This document shows, piece after piece, positions 32,314-57,995 of a DNA stretch of 64,000 nucleotides (positions are counted from its first letter, which is position 1; every line of letters begins with the position of its first letter). This DNA is from Nanobdellota archaeon. Its GTDB lineage: Archaea > Nanobdellota > Nanobdellia > Pacearchaeales > GW2011-AR1. The stretch spans positions 7,952 to 71,951 of the forward strand of contig JBBSXB010000009.1 of assembly GCA_038046005.1 (NCBI GenBank), written 5' to 3'. The translations under genes were made by a program, and so were the position numbers. The notes under the pieces were generated by a model. It did no database searches, had not been told where the DNA came from, and saw only the letters and a list, made by a program, of their open reading frames with translations.

Positions 32314-33639
32314 TCACGGCTTCCATCTCGTCATTGTTCTTGGAAAAGGAATTGCATCTTTGATAGTTTCTAAACCACATATCCATGAGATAACTCTTTC
32401 TGTTCCCATTCCAAACCCACCATGAGGAATACTTCCATATCTTCTAGTATCAAGATAAAATTCATAATTTGCAGGATCTTCACCCATATCAACAAGATTT
32501 TCTTTTATTTTTTTAATATCAGATTCCCTTTCAGAACCCCCAATAATTTCTCCATAACCTTCGGGTGCAATAAAGTCAACGCCATGAACAACTTTCTTGT
32601 CTTCGGGAGCCTCTTTCATGTAAAATGCCTTTACAATCTTTGGATAATTTGTAATCATGATAGGAACATCAAACATGGCACTCAACTTGTCTTCTTCAAC
32701 TGTCCTCAAATCTTTTCCCCACTCAACATTCATGTGGGCTTTTTCTTTAAGAAGTTTCAATGCCTCAGTGTAAGTTATTCTGACAAACTTTTTCTTTATG
32801 ACAGGTTCCAACTTTTTCACATCTCTCTCAAGAATTTGCAACTCTTCTTTATTTTCATCCAAAACTTTTTTAACAATATGTTTTATGAGTCCTTCTCCAT
32901 AACTCAAGATATCATCGAAACTCGCCCACGCAACTTCCATCTCTGCATGCCAATATTCTGTCAAGTGTCTGGAAGTTTTTGATTTCTCGGCCCTGAATGA
33001 AGGAGCAATTGTATAAATTTTTTCCAAACTAAAAATTGCAGGTTCTGCATACAACTGCCAAGATTGAGATAAGAAAACTCCTTTCTGTCCAAAATAGGGA
33101 ATAGAAAACAATGTTGATCCCCCTTCTGACTGAACGCTCTGAAAAATAGGACTTTGATATTCATAAAATCCTTCCCCCCTAAAATAATCGTGAATAGCGC
33201 CAAACACAGTGCTTCTAATCTTTAAAATAGAAGTCATCTTCCTGCTTCTCAACCATAAATGTCTTCTATCTCCTAAAAGTTCTTCATTCAAATCTTTGTT
33301 GATTGGAAAATCCTCTGCAATCTGTATAATGTTTATTTTTTCGGCAGAAATCTCAAATCCTGTCGGTGCTCTCTTGTCTTCTTTTATTGCTCCTTCAATC
33401 TCAACACTGCTTTCAATTTTTATTTTGTCTATCTCATCCCACTGCTTTTCAAATTTGCCCCTGTCCAAAACACACTGAATTATATCACTTGCATCTCTCA
33501 ACACAAGGAATTTCATCTTGTTGCTTCCTCTCTCTCTGTGTATCCATCCACGCACAGCTACTTTTCCGCTGCCTTTCTTCATGGCCTCTTTTATTGAAAG
33601 GAATTTTGTGGATGCCATGGTTTTACTAAACAACAACAT
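32314..33639 (-). CDS. asnS: class IIb aminoacyl-tRNA synthetase, probably asparaginyl-tRNA synthetase
   Basis: N-terminal OB anticodon-binding domain; motif 2 FRAEKSKTSRHLTEYWHAEME; LSQSWQLYAE instead of the AspRS QSPQ. Confidence 0.55.
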   Translation of the reverse strand: MLLFSKTMASTKFLSIKEAMKKGSGKVAVRGWIHRERGSNKMKFLVLRDASDIIQCVLDRGKFEKQWDEIDKIKIESSVEIEGAIKEDKRAPTGFEISAEKINIIQIAEDFPINKDLNEELLGDRRHLWLRSRKMTSILKIRSTVFGAIHDYFRGEGFYEYQSPIFQSVQSEGGSTLFSIPYFGQKGVFLSQSWQLYAEPAIFSLEKIYTIAPSFRAEKSKTSRHLTEYWHAEMEVAWASFDDILSYGEGLIKHIVKKVLDENKEELQILERDVKKLEPVIKKKFVRITYTEALKLLKEKAHMNVEWGKDLRTVEEDKLSAMFDVPIMITNYPKIVKAFYMKEAPEDKKVVHGVDFIAPEGYGEIIGGSERESDIKKIKENLVDMGEDPANYEFYLDTRRYGSIPHGGFGMGTERVISWICGLETIKDAIPFPRTMTRWKP

Positions 33640-35162: not shown

Positions 35163-36443
35163 TTAAGGAGTTAATCTATTTCTATCACGAGGAAAAAGAG
35201 TTGCCTCACGAATGTTAGGAAGACTCAGCATAGTTTGCGTCAAACGCTCTAAACCTATTGACCATCCACTGTGAATAGGACTACCATACCTGAAAGAATC
35301 AATATACCATTTGAAATTTTCTGGCTTCAAACCTTTTGCCTTCAGATTTTTTATCAAAATATCAGGAACATGAATTCTTTGTCCACCAGAAGAAATTTCT
35401 ATTCCCCCATAAAGTGCATCAAATCCTCCAGAAACTCCAGTCTTCTCATCTTTAGGCCAAATATAAAAAGGTTTTATCTTAGAAGGCCACTCATATGTAA
35501 AAACAATGCAGTTAGGGAACAACCCACAAAGTTTTCTCTCGGCTTCAGGCTCAAAATCATCTCCATCTTTCATTTTTATTCCATGTTTGTTCATCAAATC
35601 CAAAGCTTCTTTATATTTCAAATATTTAACATCAGGAACTTTTAATTTAACTCCTAACAAATCCAGCTCAGTTTTGCATGTATCAATAACTTTCTTAAAG
35701 ATATATTTAACAACTTCTTCAAGATGTTTCATAATCCCAATGTCATCCTCAAAAGCCATTTCAATATCCATTTGTCTTATCTCATTGATGTGCTTTGAAG
35801 TATCGTGCTTCTCAGCCCTCCAAACGGGAGTTATAAGAAAAACTCTTTCCATTGAAATTGCCATAAGCTGTTTGTATAATTGGGGGCTTTGAGCAAGATA
35901 AGCAGGCTTGTCAAAATAATTTATCTTAAACAAATCGGTTCCCCCTTCTGTTGAAGTTCCAATAATTGCGGGAGTTTGTATCTCTATAAAATTTTTGTTT
36001 GCAAAAAATTCTCTGAATGAATTTGCGATCACAGATTGAATCTTGAAAATTGCCATCACTTTCGGTTTTCTGACATCTAAGCTCCTATAATCAAGCCTTG
36101 AAGGCAGTTCAGCACTGACAGCTTTTTCATTGACTTGTATTGGTAATTTTTCAGCCTTGGCCAAAACAACTAAATTTTCAACTTCAACTTCAGCGTCTTT
36201 CCTTGCCAAATCATTTTTGACATCAGCTTTCTTTACTTTTCCCTGAATCTCAATAACACTTTCCAAAGTAAGTGAAGGAATCTCTTTCAGGATTTTTTCA
36301 TCTTTTATAATACACTGCACAATTCCAGAATTATCTCTTAAAAGGATAAATGCCATCTTTGACATGATTCTAAGCTCATGACACCATCCCTTCAACAAAA
36401 CTTCCTGCCCTATTTTTACTTCCTTGATAAAAGAGCGTTGCAT
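35163..36443 (-). CDS. aspS: aspartyl-tRNA synthetase (archaeal/eukaryotic type)
   Basis: YLAQSPQLYKQ motif, motif 2 WRAEKHDTSKHINEIRQMDIEMAF, motif 3 GGIEISSGGQRIH. Confidence 0.75.
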   Translation of the reverse strand: MQRSFIKEVKIGQEVLLKGWCHELRIMSKMAFILLRDNSGIVQCIIKDEKILKEIPSLTLESVIEIQGKVKKADVKNDLARKDAEVEVENLVVLAKAEKLPIQVNEKAVSAELPSRLDYRSLDVRKPKVMAIFKIQSVIANSFREFFANKNFIEIQTPAIIGTSTEGGTDLFKINYFDKPAYLAQSPQLYKQLMAISMERVFLITPVWRAEKHDTSKHINEIRQMDIEMAFEDDIGIMKHLEEVVKYIFKKVIDTCKTELDLLGVKLKVPDVKYLKYKEALDLMNKHGIKMKDGDDFEPEAERKLCGLFPNCIVFTYEWPSKIKPFYIWPKDEKTGVSGGFDALYGGIEISSGGQRIHVPDILIKNLKAKGLKPENFKWYIDSFRYGSPIHSGWSIGLERLTQTMLSLPNIREATLFPRDRNRLTP

Positions 36444-37326: not shown

Positions 37327-37935
37327 ATGAAGTCAGAGCAAGAATTAATTAACCACATAGAAAAACATGAAAATTCTTCTTTAGTAAGAGCTGTGCTAGC
37401 TGGGAACACAACTTTCAAACGAGAAGCACGAAGGTTTTATGATTTAGAAGTGCGTATAATAGCTGGAAGAGGAATGGCTGGAAAATTATTCAATTTTAAA
37501 AAGGAGAGTACACTAAAATTAAACCAGAATCCTACGGAATTAATAGAGTTACTTCAGCCATTTAGTGATGAACCTATAGATAAAAATAAATTGGATTATG
37601 AGAAAGTAAGAGAAGATTACAAAAGGTGGCACTCGGGATTAAGAAAGCTAAAAATAGTTGGAATAAATATTGGAAAATTAAGTATACTTATAGGATCAGC
37701 CTTTATTACAGCAAACAACCTAGATAATTTATTGCTAGCAGTTCCTTCAGGAGCAATAACTGTTGTTGGTTCTTTTTTATACAATAAAATACTTCCTACA
37801 AACAAACCTCCAAAAAACACAAACTACGAGTTTATAGAATATATGAAAATAGATGACGCTGTTTATGAAGCTGATGGTTTTATGGATAAACAATATAGAA
37901 AATATTTTGTGGGAAAAAATCTCAAAACTAAGTAA
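37327..37935 (+). CDS. hypothetical protein
   Basis: ORF track. Confidence 0.3.
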   Translation: MKSEQELINHIEKHENSSLVRAVLAGNTTFKREARRFYDLEVRIIAGRGMAGKLFNFKKESTLKLNQNPTELIELLQPFSDEPIDKNKLDYEKVREDYKRWHSGLRKLKIVGINIGKLSILIGSAFITANNLDNLLLAVPSGAITVVGSFLYNKILPTNKPPKNTNYEFIEYMKIDDAVYEADGFMDKQYRKYFVGKNLKTK

Positions 37936-39376
37936 ATCTCTTAAACTCATTTGTATGTTTTTTGATTATTTCCATTGCTTCGCTGCCGGAAATCTTGCCT
38001 TTATATTTCTGCATGACCAACCCCATGTAAGCATTTGCATTTAATCCAGGGTTAGATTTTATTAAATTTAAAATTCCCTCTTCAATTTCACCATAATCAA
38101 TTTTTGCAGTCGCCTCTTCAAAACTCATTCCTTCAACAAGCCTGTCAAGAACTCCCTTAACATCCCCCTCATTTATTTTTCCTTTTTTGACTAGTTCTAA
38201 AACACTAGGGATCTGGTCTTCAAGTTTTTCCAAAACACTTTCAAAACTAAGCTTCTTTTTTGAAGCAATCTCTTTAGTAAAAACCAAAAGCGTTTTCGCG
38301 ACAAATTGTGGCCTGTTTAAAATAATTAGAAGTTCTTTAAATTCTTCGAGTTTTCTTTCCTTAAACAAAATAGAAATCATTTCCTCAGAAAGTCCTTGTT
38401 TTCTTAATTCATTTTCAGTTTCTTCTCTTAGTTTAGGAAGATTTTTTTTAGACACATTTATCATATCCCTTGAAATTTTCAATAAAGGCAAATCAGTTTC
38501 TGGATACATCCTCGCTGCACCAGATATTGGCCTTAGAATAACGGAGCTTCCATCTTCAAGAACATTCCTTACCTCTTTATCATTTTTTAAACCTCTATTG
38601 ACAAAATTAAGCTGCCTCTCAACTTCTTTTTCAATTGTCCTTATCATAAGTTTCGGGTCTTGAAATCCTTTAAGCTCAACTCTATTGCTCCCTTTAACTG
38701 AAATGTTAATATCCTGTCTTATTGTCCCAATTCCTCTTTTAACCTGGCACGCTCTCAATATTTCGCCAATCTTCAGCGCAGTTTCTTTCGCCTGCTCTGC
38801 ATTTTTTACGTCCGGCATTGTGGAAATTTCAACAAGTGGAATTCCCAGCCTGTCTAATCTGTAAATTACCTCACCATCTTTCTTGCTGACAAGTCTGGCA
38901 GAATCCTCCTCCAAAAAAATTCCACTTATTCCAACTCTCCCAAAACTAGTGTCAACAAATCCATCTCTAGCTATCATGACTGTCCTTTGAAATCCAGAAG
39001 TGTTGCTTCCATTGATGACCGTTTTTCTCATAATCTGTGTTATCGGAATTATTGTGGCGTTAAGCAAAGCAGAAATTTGCAAGACTATTCCTAAAGCGTC
39101 TTTATTAATTTCGTGAGGGGGCTCTTCATCCAATTCAACGAGACAGTTAGTGTTGTAAACTTGATAGACAAATTCCTCTCCCAAAGAGGCCTCATGCTCT
39201 GCAGCCATGTCAATTTCTCCAGCCTCTCCGGCTACAACATGGAGCCTTCTTCTGACAACTATCTCAGGATCATCACTCCTAAAAATGCTAGGGCAATTGC
39301 AGAAAAGTTTTCTAGTATCAAGTTGCTGATGAATTTCCAATCCAGCTTTAAAGCCTATTTTAGTGTAATCAAACAT
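37928..39376 (-). CDS. gatE: Glu-tRNA(Gln) amidotransferase subunit E (compact GatE; GatB/E family)
   Basis: N-terminus GFKAGLEIHQQLDTRKLFCNCPS (GatE-type EIHQQL); C-terminal GatB/YqeY-like helical domain; gatD present 2.7 kb away. Confidence 0.7.
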   Translation of the reverse strand: MFDYTKIGFKAGLEIHQQLDTRKLFCNCPSIFRSDDPEIVVRRRLHVVAGEAGEIDMAAEHEASLGEEFVYQVYNTNCLVELDEEPPHEINKDALGIVLQISALLNATIIPITQIMRKTVINGSNTSGFQRTVMIARDGFVDTSFGRVGISGIFLEEDSARLVSKKDGEVIYRLDRLGIPLVEISTMPDVKNAEQAKETALKIGEILRACQVKRGIGTIRQDINISVKGSNRVELKGFQDPKLMIRTIEKEVERQLNFVNRGLKNDKEVRNVLEDGSSVILRPISGAARMYPETDLPLLKISRDMINVSKKNLPKLREETENELRKQGLSEEMISILFKERKLEEFKELLIILNRPQFVAKTLLVFTKEIASKKKLSFESVLEKLEDQIPSVLELVKKGKINEGDVKGVLDRLVEGMSFEEATAKIDYGEIEEGILNLIKSNPGLNANAYMGLVMQKYKGKISGSEAMEIIKKHTNEFKRFT

Positions 39377-42035: not shown

Positions 42036-43343
42036 TCACTCCTCCAGCCTATTATTAAACTCATGGCTAATATTTGAAAGCATTATTTCTTTAATTTTCT
42101 CCTTGTCCTTTGCCCAATCATCATGGCCCAAAACCCAACCTAACTTTACAAAAGCCGTTTCAGACAGCATGTCTTCAAGAAAAACAGCCCCAGTGTCATT
42201 CAAAGCCCTGAGATTAGAATAGACATAAGGGTCGACTCTTCCATAAATGCATTGTGTTGTTATTCCCACAAAAATTCCTTTTGCAATAATTCTCTTCAAT
42301 GTTGGAATCCATGAATTTTTGGAAGTGAGAGCCGGAACATGTCCCAGACCAGTTGCCTCAATTATTAGTCCTTTATATCCTCGCTTAGCATAATAGTCTA
42401 AAATTTCAGGATTTTGACCAGGATAAATTTTTAATAAAGCAACTTGGCCTTCAAACTTTGTATCAACTTTGACTTTCTCTTTTCCAACAACATTATAAGG
42501 AGATAAAATTTCAAGAACGCTGGAAGATATTTTTGCAATTGGCTTTGAATTAACAACCTTAAATGTGTCTCTTCTTGTGGAATGTAATTTCCTGACTTTC
42601 GTGCCAGGCATTGCATAACAAAAATCATCATTTGTAGAGGCATGGCCAACAATCATGACTTCTGCAATGTCTGAAATAGCCGCAAGTGCAGCACATTTTA
42701 AATTCAAAGCAGCATCGCTAGAAGCCCTGTCAGAACTTCTCTGGCTGTAAGTTAAAACGATTGGTTTATTCAAATTCTTTATAAAAAAAGACAAAGCAGA
42801 TGAAGTGTAATGCAAAGTGTCCGTTCCATGTGTTATGACAATTCCCTTGATATTTGTATCATTCAAAAAAGGCTCAAGAGTCTTTGCAATTTTCTGCCAG
42901 TCTTTATAATCCATATCTTCGCTAGCTTTCATAAAAGGCATTTCAATTTTCACAACATTTACAATATCAAAAATCTCTGGGTAAAACTTGAATAATTCTT
43001 CTGGAGAACTCAAAGGCGCAACAGCACCAGTTCTTGAGTCATAACGATTTGCAATTGTCCCTCCAGTAATTATCATAGCAATATTTGGCTTTTTAGAATC
43101 TTTTTTAATCTCTATTTTTTCTGTTTTCTTTTCAGATTTTTCCAAAACATTAATTTCAAGAACATCTTTTTTGTTTAATCCTATATTATAACCAGAATCC
43201 AGCTTCAAAAGTATGATTCCTTTCTCGTCTTCAGGAGTTGCAAGAAAAATCCCTTCATAAACAACTTTCCCAAAATGCACCTCGACATAATCTCCAGGTT
43301 CTGGCTTGGAATGTATTGACTTTTCAGGTTTCTTTGGTTTCAT
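42036..43343 (-). CDS. gatD: Glu-tRNA(Gln) amidotransferase subunit D (asparaginase-like)
   Basis: GatD N-terminal domain (GDYVEVHF...LKLDSGYNIGL) plus asparaginase motifs ITGGTIA and VITHGTDTL. Confidence 0.85.
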   Translation of the reverse strand: MKPKKPEKSIHSKPEPGDYVEVHFGKVVYEGIFLATPEDEKGIILLKLDSGYNIGLNKKDVLEINVLEKSEKKTEKIEIKKDSKKPNIAMIITGGTIANRYDSRTGAVAPLSSPEELFKFYPEIFDIVNVVKIEMPFMKASEDMDYKDWQKIAKTLEPFLNDTNIKGIVITHGTDTLHYTSSALSFFIKNLNKPIVLTYSQRSSDRASSDAALNLKCAALAAISDIAEVMIVGHASTNDDFCYAMPGTKVRKLHSTRRDTFKVVNSKPIAKISSSVLEILSPYNVVGKEKVKVDTKFEGQVALLKIYPGQNPEILDYYAKRGYKGLIIEATGLGHVPALTSKNSWIPTLKRIIAKGIFVGITTQCIYGRVDPYVYSNLRALNDTGAVFLEDMLSETAFVKLGWVLGHDDWAKDKEKIKEIMLSNISHEFNNRLEE

Positions 43344-45731: not shown

Positions 45732-47186
45732 ATGCAGGAAAAACAGAACAAAGAAGGATTAACAGTCAAGAAAGATGAGAATTTCTCAGAATGGTATTCA
45801 CAAATTGTCCAGAAATGCGAGCTGGCAGACCTCAGATACAATGTCAAAGGTTTTTTAGTTTTTCAGCCATGGTCTGTCCTTTCTATGGAAAAAATGTACT
45901 ATTATCTTGAAAAAGTATTGCGAAGAAAAAAACACAAACCATATTTTTACCCAACAGTTATTCCAGAAAGCAATTTCAAAAAAGAATCTTCTCATGTCAA
46001 AGGTTTTACGCCGGAAGTTTTTTGGGTTACACACGGCGGAACAAAAGAACTGGAAGAGAGACTTGCTTTAAGACCAACTTCAGAAACTGCGTTTTACCAG
46101 ATGTTTGCATTATGGATAAGAAGCTACAAAGACCTTCCATTTAAGACGTATCAAAGAGCTCAAGTTTTTAGATATGAAACAAAAGCCACAAGACCTTTCC
46201 TAAGAAGCAGAGAATTTCACTGGATAGAAACCCATTGTGTTCACGCAACAGAAAAAGACGCTTTGACCCAGGTTAATGAAGACATGGAAACGACTGAGGA
46301 AGTTTTACATCAAATTTTTGGGTTGCCATTCATGTTTTTTGAAAGACCTTCTTGGGATAAATTTGCAGGAGCATACAGAACATTCGCAGCAGATGTTTTG
46401 AATCCAGATGGAAAAGTTGTCCAACAACCTTCAACCCACATACTCTCTCCTAGTTTTGCAAAAGCATTTGGCATAAAATACAAAGACAAAGACGGCAAAG
46501 ACAAAGGAGTCTATACAACATGCTACGGCCCAGCTGTTTCTAGGATAATGGCAAGTGTTGCAATAGTCCACGGAGATGATAAAGGATTAAAATTCCCCTG
46601 GGAAATTGCCCCAGTCCAAGTTGTAATAGTCCCCATAGGTGAAGAAAAAGAAGTAATTGAAAAAGCGAAAGTCCTTGAAAGTAAAATAAGTGAATTAGCC
46701 TCGGTAGAGATAGACGAAACAAACAAAAGACCGGGAGAAAAATTCAACTATTGGGAAATGAAGGGAGTCCCTTTAAGAATTGATATGGGAATGAATGATA
46801 TAAAGAAAAAACAATTAACAATATTTAGAAGAGATTTAGACAAAAAAGAAACCATTCAAGAAAAAAACATTTTAAGCTACATAGAAGAAACTTCAAAAGA
46901 AATAACAAAAAATCTCAGAGAAAAAGCTGACAAGATTTTTAACAACAGAATAAAACTAGCAAAATCCAAAGAAGAAATGAAAAAAATAATAGAGCAAGGT
47001 GGAATAGTTCAATGCAATTTTTGCTCTGTAGAAAAAGAAGGAATAAAATGTGCAGAAGTCATAGAAAAAGAAATTGGTGCTGATGTTAGAGGAACCAGAT
47101 TAGATGAAACAAAAAAACCTTCAGGAAATTGTGCAATATGCAATAAAAAGGCAAACCATGTTGTTTACATCGCCAGAAGCTACTGA
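45732..47186 (+). CDS. proS: prolyl-tRNA synthetase (archaeal/eukaryotic type)
   Basis: Class IIa motifs (RPTSETAFYQMF, FRYE); C-terminal zinc-binding domain ending ...CAICNKKANHVVYIARSY. Confidence 0.9.
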   Translation: MQEKQNKEGLTVKKDENFSEWYSQIVQKCELADLRYNVKGFLVFQPWSVLSMEKMYYYLEKVLRRKKHKPYFYPTVIPESNFKKESSHVKGFTPEVFWVTHGGTKELEERLALRPTSETAFYQMFALWIRSYKDLPFKTYQRAQVFRYETKATRPFLRSREFHWIETHCVHATEKDALTQVNEDMETTEEVLHQIFGLPFMFFERPSWDKFAGAYRTFAADVLNPDGKVVQQPSTHILSPSFAKAFGIKYKDKDGKDKGVYTTCYGPAVSRIMASVAIVHGDDKGLKFPWEIAPVQVVIVPIGEEKEVIEKAKVLESKISELASVEIDETNKRPGEKFNYWEMKGVPLRIDMGMNDIKKKQLTIFRRDLDKKETIQEKNILSYIEETSKEITKNLREKADKIFNNRIKLAKSKEEMKKIIEQGGIVQCNFCSVEKEGIKCAEVIEKEIGADVRGTRLDETKKPSGNCAICNKKANHVVYIARSY

Positions 47187-55273: not shown

Positions 55274-57352
55274 ATGAATCGCATACAGCTTATAAAATCA
55301 TACATTGATTTTTTTAAATCAAAAGGCCACAAAGAAATAGAAAATTCCTCTTTAATTCCAAAAGAAGATCCAACTGTTTTATTTACCACAGCAGGTATGC
55401 ATCCTTTAGTCCCATATCTCTTAGGCCAAAAGCATCCTCTTGGGAAAAAACTTTGTAATGTTCAAAGATGTTTAAGAACAGATGATATAGATGAAGTTGG
55501 AGACGAATTCCACCACACTTTTTTTGAAATGTTGGGAAATTGGAGCCTGGGAGACTACTGGAAAAAAGAAGTAATAGAAATGAGTTTTGAATTCTTAACA
55601 CAAGTTTTGAAAATTCCAAAAGAAAAAATAGAAGTAACTTGTTTTGTAGGAGATAAAGATGCTGAAAAAGATAGTGAAGCTGCAGAAGTTTGGAAAAAGT
55701 TGGGAATAAAAAAAATAAAATTCTTGGAAAAAAAAGATAATTGGTGGGGTCCTGCAGGAAAAACAGGTCCTTGCGGGCCAGACACAGAGATGTTTGTCAA
55801 TGGCTGTGAAATATGGAATGATGTTTTCATGCAGTATAAGAGAGATAAAAGAGTAATATTAGTTGATGGAATGCACTGCTTATATGATGATAAGTTTGGT
55901 ATTAATAAAGAATTATTAGAAATAATAAACAACTTGAACAGCCATTGCATACTAACTGTTAATGGATTTAGAGAAAAGGGGTTTAATTTAATAAAAAATC
56001 ACAACCCCAACAAAAATACTAATTGGCAAGCTTTTTCGTTAGAAGAACATGGAATTAAAAAAGATAATCCAGAATATTTTAAAAGACTATTAGCAACATT
56101 TGGTTTAGACTCAAAAGAAACTATTTATTTTGATCATGATAAGAATAATGTAAAAACAGCCGAAAAATTAGGGATACTCTCTAAACATTATAACTCTAAT
56201 AAAGAAATAAAAAAATTCATTGAAGATGATCTGTATAGCACAATCCCAGCAAAACAAAAAAATGTAGACACAGGAATGGGGGTTGAGAGGACTCTTGCAA
56301 TAATAAATGGATTGAATGACAACTATCTTACAGATTCATTTAAACCAATAATAGATGAAATAGAGCATCTTTCTGGAAAAGAATATTCTGGCAAAAACAA
56401 AAAAATAATGAGAATTATTGCAGATCACATAAAAGCTTCTGTTTTTATAATTGCAGAAGGAATAACTCCAGGCAACAAAGAGCAAGGATATGTCTTAAGA
56501 AGATTATTAAGAAGAACAATAATAAATTTGAGAAAGCTCGGATTTATGGGAACTGACTTGATAAACCCAATTGCAGACAAAGTCTATGAAATATACCTAG
56601 ATTATAAAATCCTTCACGAAAAAAGAGAATTTATTTATGAAACAATAAAAAAAGAAGAAGAAAAATTCGAGGAAACTCTTGAAAAAGGCCTCAATCTGCT
56701 TGATAGATTAACAAAAGATAAGAAGAATATATCTGGAAAAGATTCTTTCTTGCTTTTTCAGTCATACGGATTTCCTATTGAAATGACTCTTGAGCTAGCA
56801 AAAGAAAAAAATATTAAGGTCAGCCTAGAAGAATTCAAAGAAGAACTAAAAAAACATCAGGAACTTTCAAGAACAGCGGCAGAAGGAAAATTTAAGTCAG
56901 GTTTAGCAGACCATTCTGAATCAACAACTAGACTTCACACAACCACCCATCTTTTACTTTCAGCATTAAGAAAAGTTCTCAAAGACGAAAAAATAATACA
57001 AAAAGGCTCAAACATAACTCCAGAGAGATTAAGGTTTGATTTTTCTTTTGATAGAAAACTTACTGATGAAGAGATAAAAAAGGCAGAAGCGCTTGTCAAT
57101 GAACAGATAAAGAAAAAAATAAATGTTGTCAGAGAAGAAATGTCGTTAGAACAGGCAAGAAAATCAGGAGCCCTTGGAATCTTCGGAGAAAAATATGGAG
57201 AAAGAGTTTCTGTTTACACAATTGGTAATTTTTCAAAAGAAATCTGCACTGGACCACACGTCAAGAACACTGCAGATATTGGAAATTTCAAAATAGTGAA
57301 AGAAGAGTCATCTTCATCCGGAGTGAGAAGAATTAAAGCTGTGGTTGAGTAA
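55274..57352 (+). CDS. alaS: alanyl-tRNA synthetase, compact form: catalytic + tRNA-recognition + editing domains, no C-Ala domain, with ~135-aa insertion
   Basis: FTTAGMHPL, QRCLRTDD, HHTFFEMLGNWSLGDY, GPCGPDTE, EIWNDVFMQY, DTGMGVERT; editing HTTTHLL and CTGPHV; ends after the editing domain. Confidence 0.9.
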   Translation: MNRIQLIKSYIDFFKSKGHKEIENSSLIPKEDPTVLFTTAGMHPLVPYLLGQKHPLGKKLCNVQRCLRTDDIDEVGDEFHHTFFEMLGNWSLGDYWKKEVIEMSFEFLTQVLKIPKEKIEVTCFVGDKDAEKDSEAAEVWKKLGIKKIKFLEKKDNWWGPAGKTGPCGPDTEMFVNGCEIWNDVFMQYKRDKRVILVDGMHCLYDDKFGINKELLEIINNLNSHCILTVNGFREKGFNLIKNHNPNKNTNWQAFSLEEHGIKKDNPEYFKRLLATFGLDSKETIYFDHDKNNVKTAEKLGILSKHYNSNKEIKKFIEDDLYSTIPAKQKNVDTGMGVERTLAIINGLNDNYLTDSFKPIIDEIEHLSGKEYSGKNKKIMRIIADHIKASVFIIAEGITPGNKEQGYVLRRLLRRTIINLRKLGFMGTDLINPIADKVYEIYLDYKILHEKREFIYETIKKEEEKFEETLEKGLNLLDRLTKDKKNISGKDSFLLFQSYGFPIEMTLELAKEKNIKVSLEEFKEELKKHQELSRTAAEGKFKSGLADHSESTTRLHTTTHLLLSALRKVLKDEKIIQKGSNITPERLRFDFSFDRKLTDEEIKKAEALVNEQIKKKINVVREEMSLEQARKSGALGIFGEKYGERVSVYTIGNFSKEICTGPHVKNTADIGNFKIVKEESSSSGVRRIKAVVE

Positions 57353-57995
57353 AATGCATTTTAAACTTATTGAGTATATTTCCAAGATAAACAAATCCAG
57401 AATTCTTTACAAAAGCAAGATAACAACCATAGATAGATTATCAGAAAAAACAATTTTAAAGATTATTCCAAAAAAAGTAACCCCTAACCATGTCACAACT
57501 TTTAGGTTTATCACAATTCCAATACTAATAACATTGCTCGTGTTTGAATATTACAAGCTAGGAGCCCTGTTGTTTATTATTTCTGCATTTTCAGATGTGA
57601 TAGATGGGGCTCTTGCCAGAACCAAAAATAAAATAACGACTTGGGGGGCAGTATATGACCCAATAGCAGATAAATTATTAATTGGAAGTGTATCAGTAAT
57701 ACTAATTTCTAAATTAATTTCACCGTATCTCAGCCTATTAATAATTGTAATTGAAATAATGATCATCTTGTTGGCATTATATTGCTTCAAAGGAGAAATG
57801 CCTCCAGCCAAGATATTTGGCAAGTTAAAAGGAATTTGTTATACAACAGGGATTTTCTTGTTAATAATTTATTCGCTTAGAAACTTTCAAGTGCTATTGG
57901 GGGTTTCAAAAGTTTTTGTGTATCTTGGGTTGTTGTTTGCAATATTAAGTCCAACATTGTATTACGAGATGTTAAAGAAAAGGTATAAACATTAA
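57345..57995 (+). CDS. CDP-alcohol phosphatidyltransferase-family membrane enzyme
   Basis: DVIDGALARTKNKITTWGAVYDPIADKL matches D-x2-DG-x2-AR...G-x3-D-x3-D. Confidence 0.8.
   Translation: MSKMHFKLIEYISKINKSRILYKSKITTIDRLSEKTILKIIPKKVTPNHVTTFRFITIPILITLLVFEYYKLGALLFIISAFSDVIDGALARTKNKITTWGAVYDPIADKLLIGSVSVILISKLISPYLSLLIIVIEIMIILLALYCFKGEMPPAKIFGKLKGICYTTGIFLLIIYSLRNFQVLLGVSKVFVYLGLLFAILSPTLYYEMLKKRYKH

Follow-up and report, generated by a model that had tools for sequence, protein, structure and literature searches.

Gene content of the locus

The stretch of DNA considered here, referred to below as the window, comprises 64,000 nucleotides of contig JBBSXB010000009.1 from a Nanobdellota archaeon, and it contains a gene for alanyl-tRNA synthetase (AlaRS) whose catalytic core is interrupted, in frame, by an additional domain predicted to have the haloacid dehalogenase (HAD) fold. 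The contents of the window are archaeal, with TFE adjoining AlaRS, MCM, GatD/GatE and intron-containing tRNA genes. The AlaRS open reading frame (ORF), whose product is identical to protein P0001 (named 'Nanoarchaeota archaeon' at NCBI), encodes 692 amino acids (aa) and stops straight after the editing domain, the C-Ala domain being missing (Table 1). This architecture had been recognized in the initial annotation, made from the sequence alone, and it agrees with the ORF listing and with the NF002436 and TIGR00344 profiles.

Best fitted by NF002436, an AlaRS model of 595 aa (725.8 bits, cut-off 529, in two pieces), the ORF product also matches PF01411, again broken into two stretches (E 7e-117; 391.7 bits, cut-off 30.3), and, with 65.4 bits, the editing-domain module PF07973. 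The bacterial model TIGR00344 (847 positions) scores 534.6 bits for a cut-off of 457, whereas the archaeal model TIGR03683 gives 239.6 bits, below its cut-off of 744.7. Small-AlaRS without C-Ala have already been published for lineages of the candidate phyla radiation (CPR), DPANN and Asgard (bioRxiv 10.1101/2023.05.29.542759). Like these and like NF002436 (PRK01584), the protein has only catalytic, tRNA-recognition and editing domains, neither cradle-loop barrel nor C-Ala, and a bacterial-type sequence in an archaeon. Unlike the published small-AlaRS, the window gene and 69 of its 120 closest relatives have a domain of 121-134 aa, of predicted HAD fold, before motif 3; the small-AlaRS paper mentions no hydrolase, haloacid or phosphatase domain (bioRxiv 10.1101/2023.05.29.542759).

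In an AlphaFold2 (AF2) model of the full-length protein (predicted local distance difference test, pLDDT, 91; predicted template modelling score, pTM, 0.73), a helical domain extends to about residue 535, from where a disordered linker (533-544) leads to an AlaX-like editing core (549-692). The model superposes on the catalytic fragments of the E. coli, Aquifex and human AlaRS with target-normalized template modelling scores (TMt) of 0.83-0.87. R68 (R69 in E. coli) and N182 lie within aa 1-193, N182 being on the strand that enters the hairpin described below. Asp332 is D235 in E. coli numbering according to the 3hxu alignment, and Asn182 would be N212, as judged from the constant 30-residue offset upstream of the insert and not from a residue-level alignment; both are residues of the alanine pocket. 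Across 104 insert-bearing and insert-free sequences, R68, N182, D332, G334, G336, E338 and R339 are invariant, as are the editing residues H555, H559, C658 and H662, and the ratio of nonsynonymous to synonymous substitution rates (dN/dS) in the flanks of the insert, between the window gene and its relative P0002, is 0.045. Since the gene is orthologous and syntenic with insert-free AlaRS genes, a housekeeping role as the working AlaRS of the cell is supported, as far as can be judged from 64 kb of genome together with this orthology and synteny.

Table 1. Coordinates of the AlaRS gene, of its domains and motifs, and of other features of the window
Feature	Coordinates	Strand	Evidence or remark
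Complete small-AlaRS gene with guest domain, 692 aa + stop	55274..57352	+	ORF listing, PF01411, PF07973, NF002436
N-terminal part of class II aminoacylation core, aa 1-193	55274..55852	+	aligns to 1riq 10-210; model strand 178-192
Guest mini-HAD domain, aa 194-319, predicted capless Rossmannoid, 5 strands + 5 helices	55853..56230	+	AF2, Foldseek; absent from P0002, P0081, P0098
HAD motif I equivalent, ILVDGMHC	55856..55879	+	D198, putative nucleophile, at 55865..55867; Asp+2 replaced by Met200
HAD motif II position, ILTVNG	55949..55966	+	usual Thr replaced by Val229; Asn230 conserved
HAD motif III region, IKKDNPEYF	56054..56080	+	Lys263 at 56060..56062; matches HAD-IA 'KPdpeiF' of TIGR01509, PRK09456
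HAD motif IV equivalent, YFDH	56126..56137	+	Asp287, His288; His replaces usual second acidic residue
Hairpin return strand, motif 3 and helical tRNA-recognition domain, aa 320-535	56231..56878	+	aligns to 1riq 211-427, E. coli 3hxu 228-438
Motif 3, DTGMGVER	56267..56290	+	D332 = E. coli D235; model strand 321-336
Editing domain, aa 549-692	56918..57349	+	PF07973; AlaXM-like match 550-691; Foldseek to AlaX structures
HTTTH, aa 555-559	56936..56950	+	editing-site zinc motif HxxxH
CTGPH, aa 658-662	57245..57259	+	editing-site zinc motif CxxxH
tRNA gene with 51-nt intron at anticodon loop	21311..21433	+	Rfam 58 bits
tRNA gene with 43-nt intron at anticodon loop	44513..44624	-	Rfam 56 bits
Two paralogous class II Asp/Asn/Lys-type synthetases	32314..33639, 35163..36443	-	none with guest
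GatE-like and GatD genes	37928..39376, 42036..43343	-	close to class II synthetase pair
ProRS	45732..47186		no guest domain

An in-frame guest in the catalytic core

The insertion, of 127 aa and in frame, lies between FMQY and PAKQKNVDTGMGVER, in the hairpin preceding motif 3. In the alignment to the Aquifex AlaRS (1riq), residues 8-197 of the query correspond to 10-210 of the chain and residues 325-534 to 211-427; as the solved enzyme is continuous there (210-211), about 127 query residues have no counterpart in it. In the full-length model, the long hairpin made up of host strands 178-192 and 321-336 has the HAD domain (194-319) on its tip, the linkers being essentially nil and the junction blocks having a pLDDT of at least 89. 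The guest domain is joined to its host between KRDKR and VILVD on one side and between FIEDD and LYSTIPAK on the other. An extra segment of ~135 aa between two AlaRS motifs had been proposed in the initial annotation; alignment to 1riq and to the insert-free orthologue P0002 delimits it at 127 aa, with the folded part (55853..56230) falling within the proposed 55844..56257, and all the motifs then quoted are found at their places in the ORF (VILVDGMHCLYDD, ILTVNG, IKKDNPEYF, YFDHDKNN, HTTTH and CTGPH).

A highly conserved site in an essential gene and a sporadic distribution are features known from inteins, and the genome has intron-containing tRNAs, but it is next to impossible that the segment is absent from the mature enzyme, be it as an assembly chimera, an intein or a bulge-helix-bulge intron. 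The identical AlaRS protein is found on six contigs, and the two loci retrieved are independent assemblies (ENA Hainich H41, from groundwater, and Logan SRR32696712); together with 70 homologues having the insert at the same position, this speaks against a misassembly, in agreement with the initial annotation. Against an intein, the continuous frame had been put forward, which is faulty reasoning because inteins are themselves in frame, yet the conclusion stands on other evidence: there is no Hint or intein match in Pfam, the predicted fold is Rossmannoid alpha/beta and not Hint, and the splice-junction residues are missing, the N-junction having no Cys, Ser or Thr and the C-junction no His-Asn plus nucleophile. 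For a bulge-helix-bulge mRNA intron, the best junction candidate (10/11) is out of frame and is equalled by 127 of 200 random position pairs; furthermore, the frame is open across the variable insert lengths of 121-134 aa.

Two other origins were considered and rejected. No direct or inverted repeats and no target-site duplication bracket the insert, as would be expected of a transposon-like insertion, and for a virus-borne cassette, no match was obtained among INPHARED phages by tblastn nor in IMG/VR with patterns of the type-A and free-standing forms described below. A search of BFVD with the guest domain returned generic HAD-fold matches only.

Fold and active-site residues of the guest

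Modelled alone with AF2 from 38 aligned sequences, both inserts and free-standing relatives, the insert (pLDDT 94.5, pTM 0.88) displays five strands alternating with five helices. Its top Foldseek matches in the PDB are all HAD enzymes (probability 1.0, query-normalized TMq 0.6-0.67), with the N-terminal phosphatase of soluble epoxide hydrolase (sEH), E. coli YihX, C. glutamicum 2pr7 (137 aa), MDP-1 and HisB-N as neighbours. A cap domain is missing, as ~126 aa leaves no room for it, and the insert is predicted to be a capless HAD-fold domain that folds independently. With sequence profiles, the insert alone gives only weak HAD matches, to PF00702 (E = 0.005), NIF and Acid_PPase, its best NCBIfam match being PRK09456, the YihX model (E = 3e-8); some homologues, e.g., P0079 and P0097, pass the PF00702 cut-off in precomputed annotations.

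The 70 inserts fall into type A (63, the window included) and type B (7). D198, K263 and H288 are present in 70/70 and D287 in 68/70, with Glu in the other two, whereas the +2 position of motif I is never acidic: it is Met in type A, Ile or Asn in type B, and variable but non-acidic in the free-standing members inspected. In type A, G199 and M200 are found in 63/63, C202 in 62/63, V229 in 58/63 and N230 in 59/63, and the signature VDGMxCxYD ... FSLEE is strictly conserved. Thr or Ser occupies the motif II position in 6/7 type-B inserts and in most listed free-standing members, as T-N in type B and free-standing forms. The type B signature, VDA[IN]xC/T ... VTN ... FTLE, resembles the wider free-standing family, whose own signature reads hhVDAxxT / hhhTNA / NPxK..PEYF / YF[ED]H and whose motif IV is F[ED]H. 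Since free-standing members share it, the absence of Asp+2 characterizes the whole family and is no sign of decay in the window gene.

Compared with HAD-IA and capless (C0) HADs (YihX 8pne and 2b0c; sEH N-terminal; 2pr7; MDP-1; HisB-N), the guest has the same Rossmannoid core, the Asp nucleophile, the motif III Lys in 'KxxPExF' and one acidic residue in motif IV. It differs from them in its size of ~126 aa with no cap, in the replacement of Asp+2 by Met, Ile or Trp, in a motif IV of [DE]-His where two acidic residues are usual and, for type A, in Val instead of the motif II Thr and in the DGMxCxYD / FSLEE signature of its own. The guest had been described beforehand as a degenerate HAD-fold hydrolase. 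The fold is borne out by weak profiles, AF2 and Foldseek, and Asp+2 and the motif II Thr are indeed missing; 'degenerate' is less apt, as there is next to no variation in the nucleophile Asp, the Lys or the motif IV Asp-His, and Asp+2 is missing family-wide. Nei-Gojobori estimates of dN/dS, which are rough values, are ~0.25-0.30 for pairs of type-A inserts and 0.05-0.2 for the flanks, so that the guest is, by sequence comparison, under purifying selection. Conservation of the Asp/Lys/Asp-His set speaks for phosphoryl-transfer chemistry having been retained, with His288 as a candidate acid/base in place of the missing Asp+2.

A catalytically dead HAD pseudoenzyme, kept as a structural, binding or interaction domain or merely tolerated, would account for the family-wide absence of Asp+2, for Val at motif II in 58/63 type A, for the His that motif IV has instead of its second acidic residue, for profile scores under the Pfam and NCBIfam cut-offs and for the absence of a cap domain to make a small-molecule pocket. 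This is nevertheless improbable, because the invariant residues are precisely the HAD active-site positions D198, K263, D287 and H288 (68-70/70), which a purely structural role would not require, and because dN/dS is well under 1. In addition, E. coli YihX, one of the top structural neighbours of the guest, is an active phosphatase that apparently does without Asp+2.

An optional cassette among AlaRS genes

Among the 120 AlaRS closest to the query by score, this exact site is occupied by an insert of 121-134 aa in 70 and by a 4-residue turn in the other 50, the insert-free orthologues being 561-570 aa long. In a host tree built from the flanks only, the insert-bearing and insert-free states are interleaved, and parsimony requires at least 22 changes of state on this tree versus a mean of 38 for shuffled labels. 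The closest relatives of the window AlaRS are insert-free (P0002 and P0003, with 90.6% and 87% flank identity), and no insert-bearing relative exceeds 72% flank identity to it. The locus of P0002 (L001) is syntenic with the window through DAC, deoxyhypusine synthase, SpoIIM, rhomboid, TFE, two small ORFs, AlaRS and a glycosyltransferase, and the two AlaRS genes differ by one clean 381-nt indel between flanks that are ~84% identical in nucleotides. In another syntenic pair, P0016 with and P0081 without the insert, the proteins are 96.6% and the nucleotides 95-96% identical, with a 363-nt indel; in a third, P0004 (type A) and P0098 (no insert), flank identity is 89.7%. Along with P0050 (type B), the last two represent three allelic states at syntenic loci whose flanks are mostly 80-95% identical in nucleotides. 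Between P0004 and P0050, the flanks are 87-88% identical and the inserts only 50-60% in nucleotides and 31% in protein. AlaRS evidently does without the guest, since orthologues that are 91-97% identical outside the insert do not have it. The view of a domain accretion inside an essential synthetase, put forward in the initial annotation, is thus correct for the insertion itself, though not in the sense of a fixed acquisition, the domain being optional and of varied type among close relatives.

When insert-bearing AlaRS are compared in pairs, the identity of the inserts does not correlate with that of the flanks (Spearman rho = -0.15). Type-B inserts occur at scattered places in the host tree, and the nearest insert-bearing relative of each type-B host carries type A. 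The history of the guest thus appears, at the sequence level, decoupled from that of the host gene. The codons bordering the insert (IWNDVFMQY and AKQKN[VI]DTGMGVER) are highly conserved, at the DNA level too. No second copy of the guest domain is found in the 64-kb window, nor any free-standing copy within 3-6 kb of the insert-free AlaRS loci.

When GTDB species representatives were scanned with the type-A alignment, the type-A insert was found at the AlaRS site in 15 DPANN genomes and also in Saccharibacteria (50% identity), Komeilibacteria (39%) and Gracilibacteria (33%). AlaRS from metagenome-assembled genomes of these three bacterial groups, with the guest at the same site, are represented by loci L030, L031 and L032. 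The insert-bearing AlaRS from Gracilibacteria has in-frame TGA codons under table 11, which are expected if TGA is a sense codon in this group, as in the known recoding of Gracilibacteria.

Such a distribution raises the question of a selfish nested element, which would persist in frame in essential genes because its imprecise deletion is lethal, and would spread horizontally with no benefit for the host. In line with it, the distribution is patchy among close relatives, one orthologous site has three allelic states, the domain is nested time and again in distinct essential hosts, it spans CPR and DPANN, and the guest unit coincides with a whole free-standing ORF. On balance such an element is very unlikely, considering that the guest is not accompanied by any nuclease, recombinase or homing function, that terminal repeats and target-site duplication are not found, that the phage and viral collections searched do not contain it, that the active-site residues, needless for a pure parasite, are conserved, and that one free-standing copy lies in a housekeeping operon.

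Two side observations concern this set of AlaRS. In 18 of the 120 small-AlaRS, the strands flanking the alanine pocket co-vary, IWNDVF...DTGMGVER becoming IGNDV[LF]...DFGGGVER, with W181G accompanied by T333F and M335G (55814..55828 and 56270..56278 in the window, aa 181, 185, 333, 335); P0007, P0019, P0027, P0032, P0039 and P0063 are among the homologues with this change, which looks like a compensated remodelling beside the substrate-binding Asn and Asp. Some insert-bearing AlaRS are 50-170 aa longer still, namely P0039 (868 aa), P0075 (773 aa), P0013 (741 aa) and P0015 (749 aa). Their additional segments, for which Pfam gives no match, may be further guest insertions or extensions.

The same domain outside AlaRS

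A search of 1.84 billion representative proteins with the insert profile retrieved 114 proteins at E <= 1e-10, many of them 120-135 aa long and covering the whole profile; an insert-only word-index search gave three free-standing proteins and missed the AlaRS-embedded homologues. Free-standing homologues of 121-135 aa are found in DPANN (Nanoarchaeota, Aenigmatarchaeota), in CPR (Pacebacteria) and in Flavobacteriaceae. The closest ones are 48-55% identical to the window insert and belong to type A; with an ATG and a stop of their own, they begin and end where the insert does. One free-standing type-A protein, P0275 (127 aa), is encoded on a DPANN contig (L008 6001..6384, L009 1309..1692) by a gene that starts 2 nt past SBDS and precedes Rrp4, Rrp41, Rrp42 and RpoK, with one opposite-strand ORF between. 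This cluster of archaeal information-processing genes also holds S5, SecY and proteasome alpha; the SBDS-exosome cluster is not in the 64-kb window. The free-standing copies of Flavobacteriaceae (P0299, P0311, P0318 and P0326), which read MKTILVDAWNTF...IIVTNA...YFEHN, come from cultured or near-complete genomes of Mariniflexile, Lentiprolixibacter and Eudoraea and are annotated only as hypothetical or HAD family hydrolase.

The mini-HAD is also embedded in other proteins, mostly synthetases. Two LeuRS contain it, one together with GNAT and Ser-hydrolase guests and the other with NUDIX and Ham1, as do three Ile/Val-type class I synthetases, two of them with a GNAT guest, and one Asp/Lys/Asn-type class II synthetase. 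Beyond synthetases, it splits PF00521 in GyrA/ParC, is fused N-terminally to ribosomal protein L22, and occurs in a VTT-domain membrane protein; a SecA fragment, an SNF2 helicase and a flavin reductase are weaker or less certain hosts. In a neighbour-joining domain tree on 126 columns, which is indicative only, the AlaRS inserts of P0050 and P0060 group with the guests of Ile/Val-type synthetases, GyrA and the Asp/Lys/Asn-type synthetase and not with type A. Small enzymes of other families (GNAT, NUDIX, Ham1/ITPase, Ser_hydrolase) are likewise nested in metagenomic LeuRS and Ile/Val-type synthetases (P0157, P0188, P0169, P0176, P0205), and a DPANN LeuRS with a Ser_hydrolase/Abhydrolase segment (L014 6632..7710) adjoins the insert-free AlaRS of P0098. 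It would seem that these lineages quite generally house guest domains in essential synthetases.

The predominance of synthetases (AlaRS, LeuRS, Ile/Val-type, Asp/Lys/Asn-type) among embedded hosts is what would be expected if the guest worked in cis with AlaRS, either regulating aminoacylation as a phospho-Asp or ligand switch or acting on a reaction partner such as pyrophosphate, mis-activated aminoacyl-adenylate or a tRNA end. Mounted on the strands with the alanine-binding Asn182 and Asp332, it would then be comparable to the INS editing domain that bacterial ProRS has between motifs 2 and 3. The insertion between motifs 2 and 3, through a predicted rigid hairpin with very short linkers, and the free-standing copy in the SBDS-exosome cluster count in the same direction, as does the loss of Asp+2, which should make the aspartyl-phosphate turn over more slowly, in the manner of switch-like HAD or receiver domains. 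A cis role is nonetheless unlikely in view of the orthologues without the domain (91-97% identical outside the insert), which display no compensating changes beyond the junction, and of the occurrence of the same domain in GyrA, L22, a flavin reductase fusion and a VTT-domain protein, and alone in Flavobacteriaceae; moreover, the tip of the hairpin is ~10 beta-strand residues away from the alanine pocket on either side.

A proposed autonomous module in a permissive loop

The explanation favoured here, to which a probability of about one half may be given, is that the mini-HAD is an autonomous phosphoryl-transfer module lodged in a permissive loop of a functional AlaRS and exchanged by recombination. 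A whole mini-HAD, equivalent to a free-standing gene of 121-135 aa minus start and stop codons, is nested in frame at the tip of the beta-hairpin that connects the Asn182 strand to the motif-3 strand with Asp332. It would act as a Mg-dependent phosphoryl-transfer or hydrolase module, possibly with His288 serving for Asp+2. Its job would not be alanylation-specific, because the domain exists alone and in unrelated hosts and because the AlaRS of sister lineages do without it; it could rather consist in the 'house-cleaning' of nucleotides or phospho-metabolites, or be linked to translation or RNA. The mostly-synthetase hosts and the NUDIX and Ham1 co-guests suggest, without proving it, that the guest is linked to translation or to the house-cleaning of nucleotides. 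The guest would be carried in a surface loop that tolerates insertions, in an essential gene with constitutive expression, and its presence, absence or type would be swapped between alleles by homologous recombination through the codons for IWNDVFMQY and AKQKN[VI]DTGMGVER.

Several points weigh against this explanation. The 120 closest AlaRS were picked by their score to the query and form a biased sample. On the insert, PF00702 scores 15.7-17.7 bits for a cut-off of 26.4 and TIGR01509 scores 24.6 bits for a cut-off of 29.4. With Asp+2 missing and the motif II Thr replaced by Val in type A, the window included, phosphatase activity is not assured, and the dN/dS values are rough because dS is near saturation. 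Incongruence is the ground on which recombination through the conserved flanks is inferred, and the enrichment of aminoacyl-tRNA synthetases among the hosts could mean that the role of the guest is tied to synthetases and is not autonomous.

Insertion domains between motifs 2 and 3 of class II synthetases are familiar from the INS editing domain of bacterial ProRS, the GAD domain of bacterial AspRS and the insertion domain of HisRS. As in these, a whole folded domain is accommodated in the class II core with the core fold intact; whereas these domains are, as far as is known, fixed, lineage-wide and synthetase-specific, the AlaRS guest is optional, of divergent types, and has free-standing homologues and unrelated hosts. 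With inteins, the guest shares only its population behaviour, i.e., an in-frame position at a conserved site of an essential gene, a sporadic distribution, more than one allele type and several hosts; unlike inteins, it has no Hint fold, splice residues or homing endonuclease and is predicted to be retained in the mature protein. Class II core insertions, small-AlaRS and the HAD fold are thus known, and what is unusual is the population behaviour of the domain, which is optional, multi-type, and found in several essential hosts of CPR and DPANN. The literature searched, with most subscription journals outside its coverage, describes no HAD domain in AlaRS and no such guests in DPANN or CPR synthetases.

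Beyond AlaRS, a broader and more speculative proposal, rated as a long shot, is that mini-HAD genes of ~125 aa are mobile in-frame guests which lodge repeatedly in essential CPR and DPANN genes (AlaRS, LeuRS, Ile/Val-type and Asp/Lys/Asn-type synthetases, GyrA, with a terminal fusion to L22), are polymorphic in AlaRS for presence, absence and allele type, and cross the boundary between bacteria and archaea, in an intein-like manner without splicing. As GNAT, NUDIX, Ham1 and Ser-hydrolase domains are nested in the same synthetases, they may share this mobile-guest lifestyle.

Other features of the window

An ORF for a CDP-alcohol phosphatidyltransferase (57345..57995, + strand) shares its first 8 nt with the end of the AlaRS gene; the otherwise syntenic P0002 locus (L001) does not have this ORF, which makes it a second indel between the sister genomes. 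The stretch of the window with the class II synthetase pair, the GatE-like and GatD genes and ProRS is rich in aminoacylation genes, none of which has the guest domain. The two intron-containing tRNA genes of Table 1 are Rfam matches, ARAGORN reporting no tRNA in the window.

Biological significance

AlaRS is described in published abstracts as being among the most architecturally conserved synthetases. It apparently tolerates the gain, loss and replacement of a complete enzyme-like domain in the middle of its catalytic core among lineages that are 91-97% identical outside the insert, and its hairpin would be a naturally permissive insertion site beside the alanine-binding residues. The natural pairs with and without the insert are suited to tests of the effect of the guest on activity or fidelity. 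The analysis also defines an uncharacterized mini-HAD family, extending from Flavobacteriaceae to DPANN, whose chemistry would proceed without Asp+2 and with an invariant His, and for which Flavobacteriaceae offer tractable organisms in which to find the function. If mobility of the mini-HAD guest were true, it would be a previously unrecognized kind of domain-level genetic element. More generally, the recurrent housing of accessory enzymes in the essential genes of ultra-small cells, or alternatively a selfish strategy, neither of which was found described, may be what these nested domains represent.

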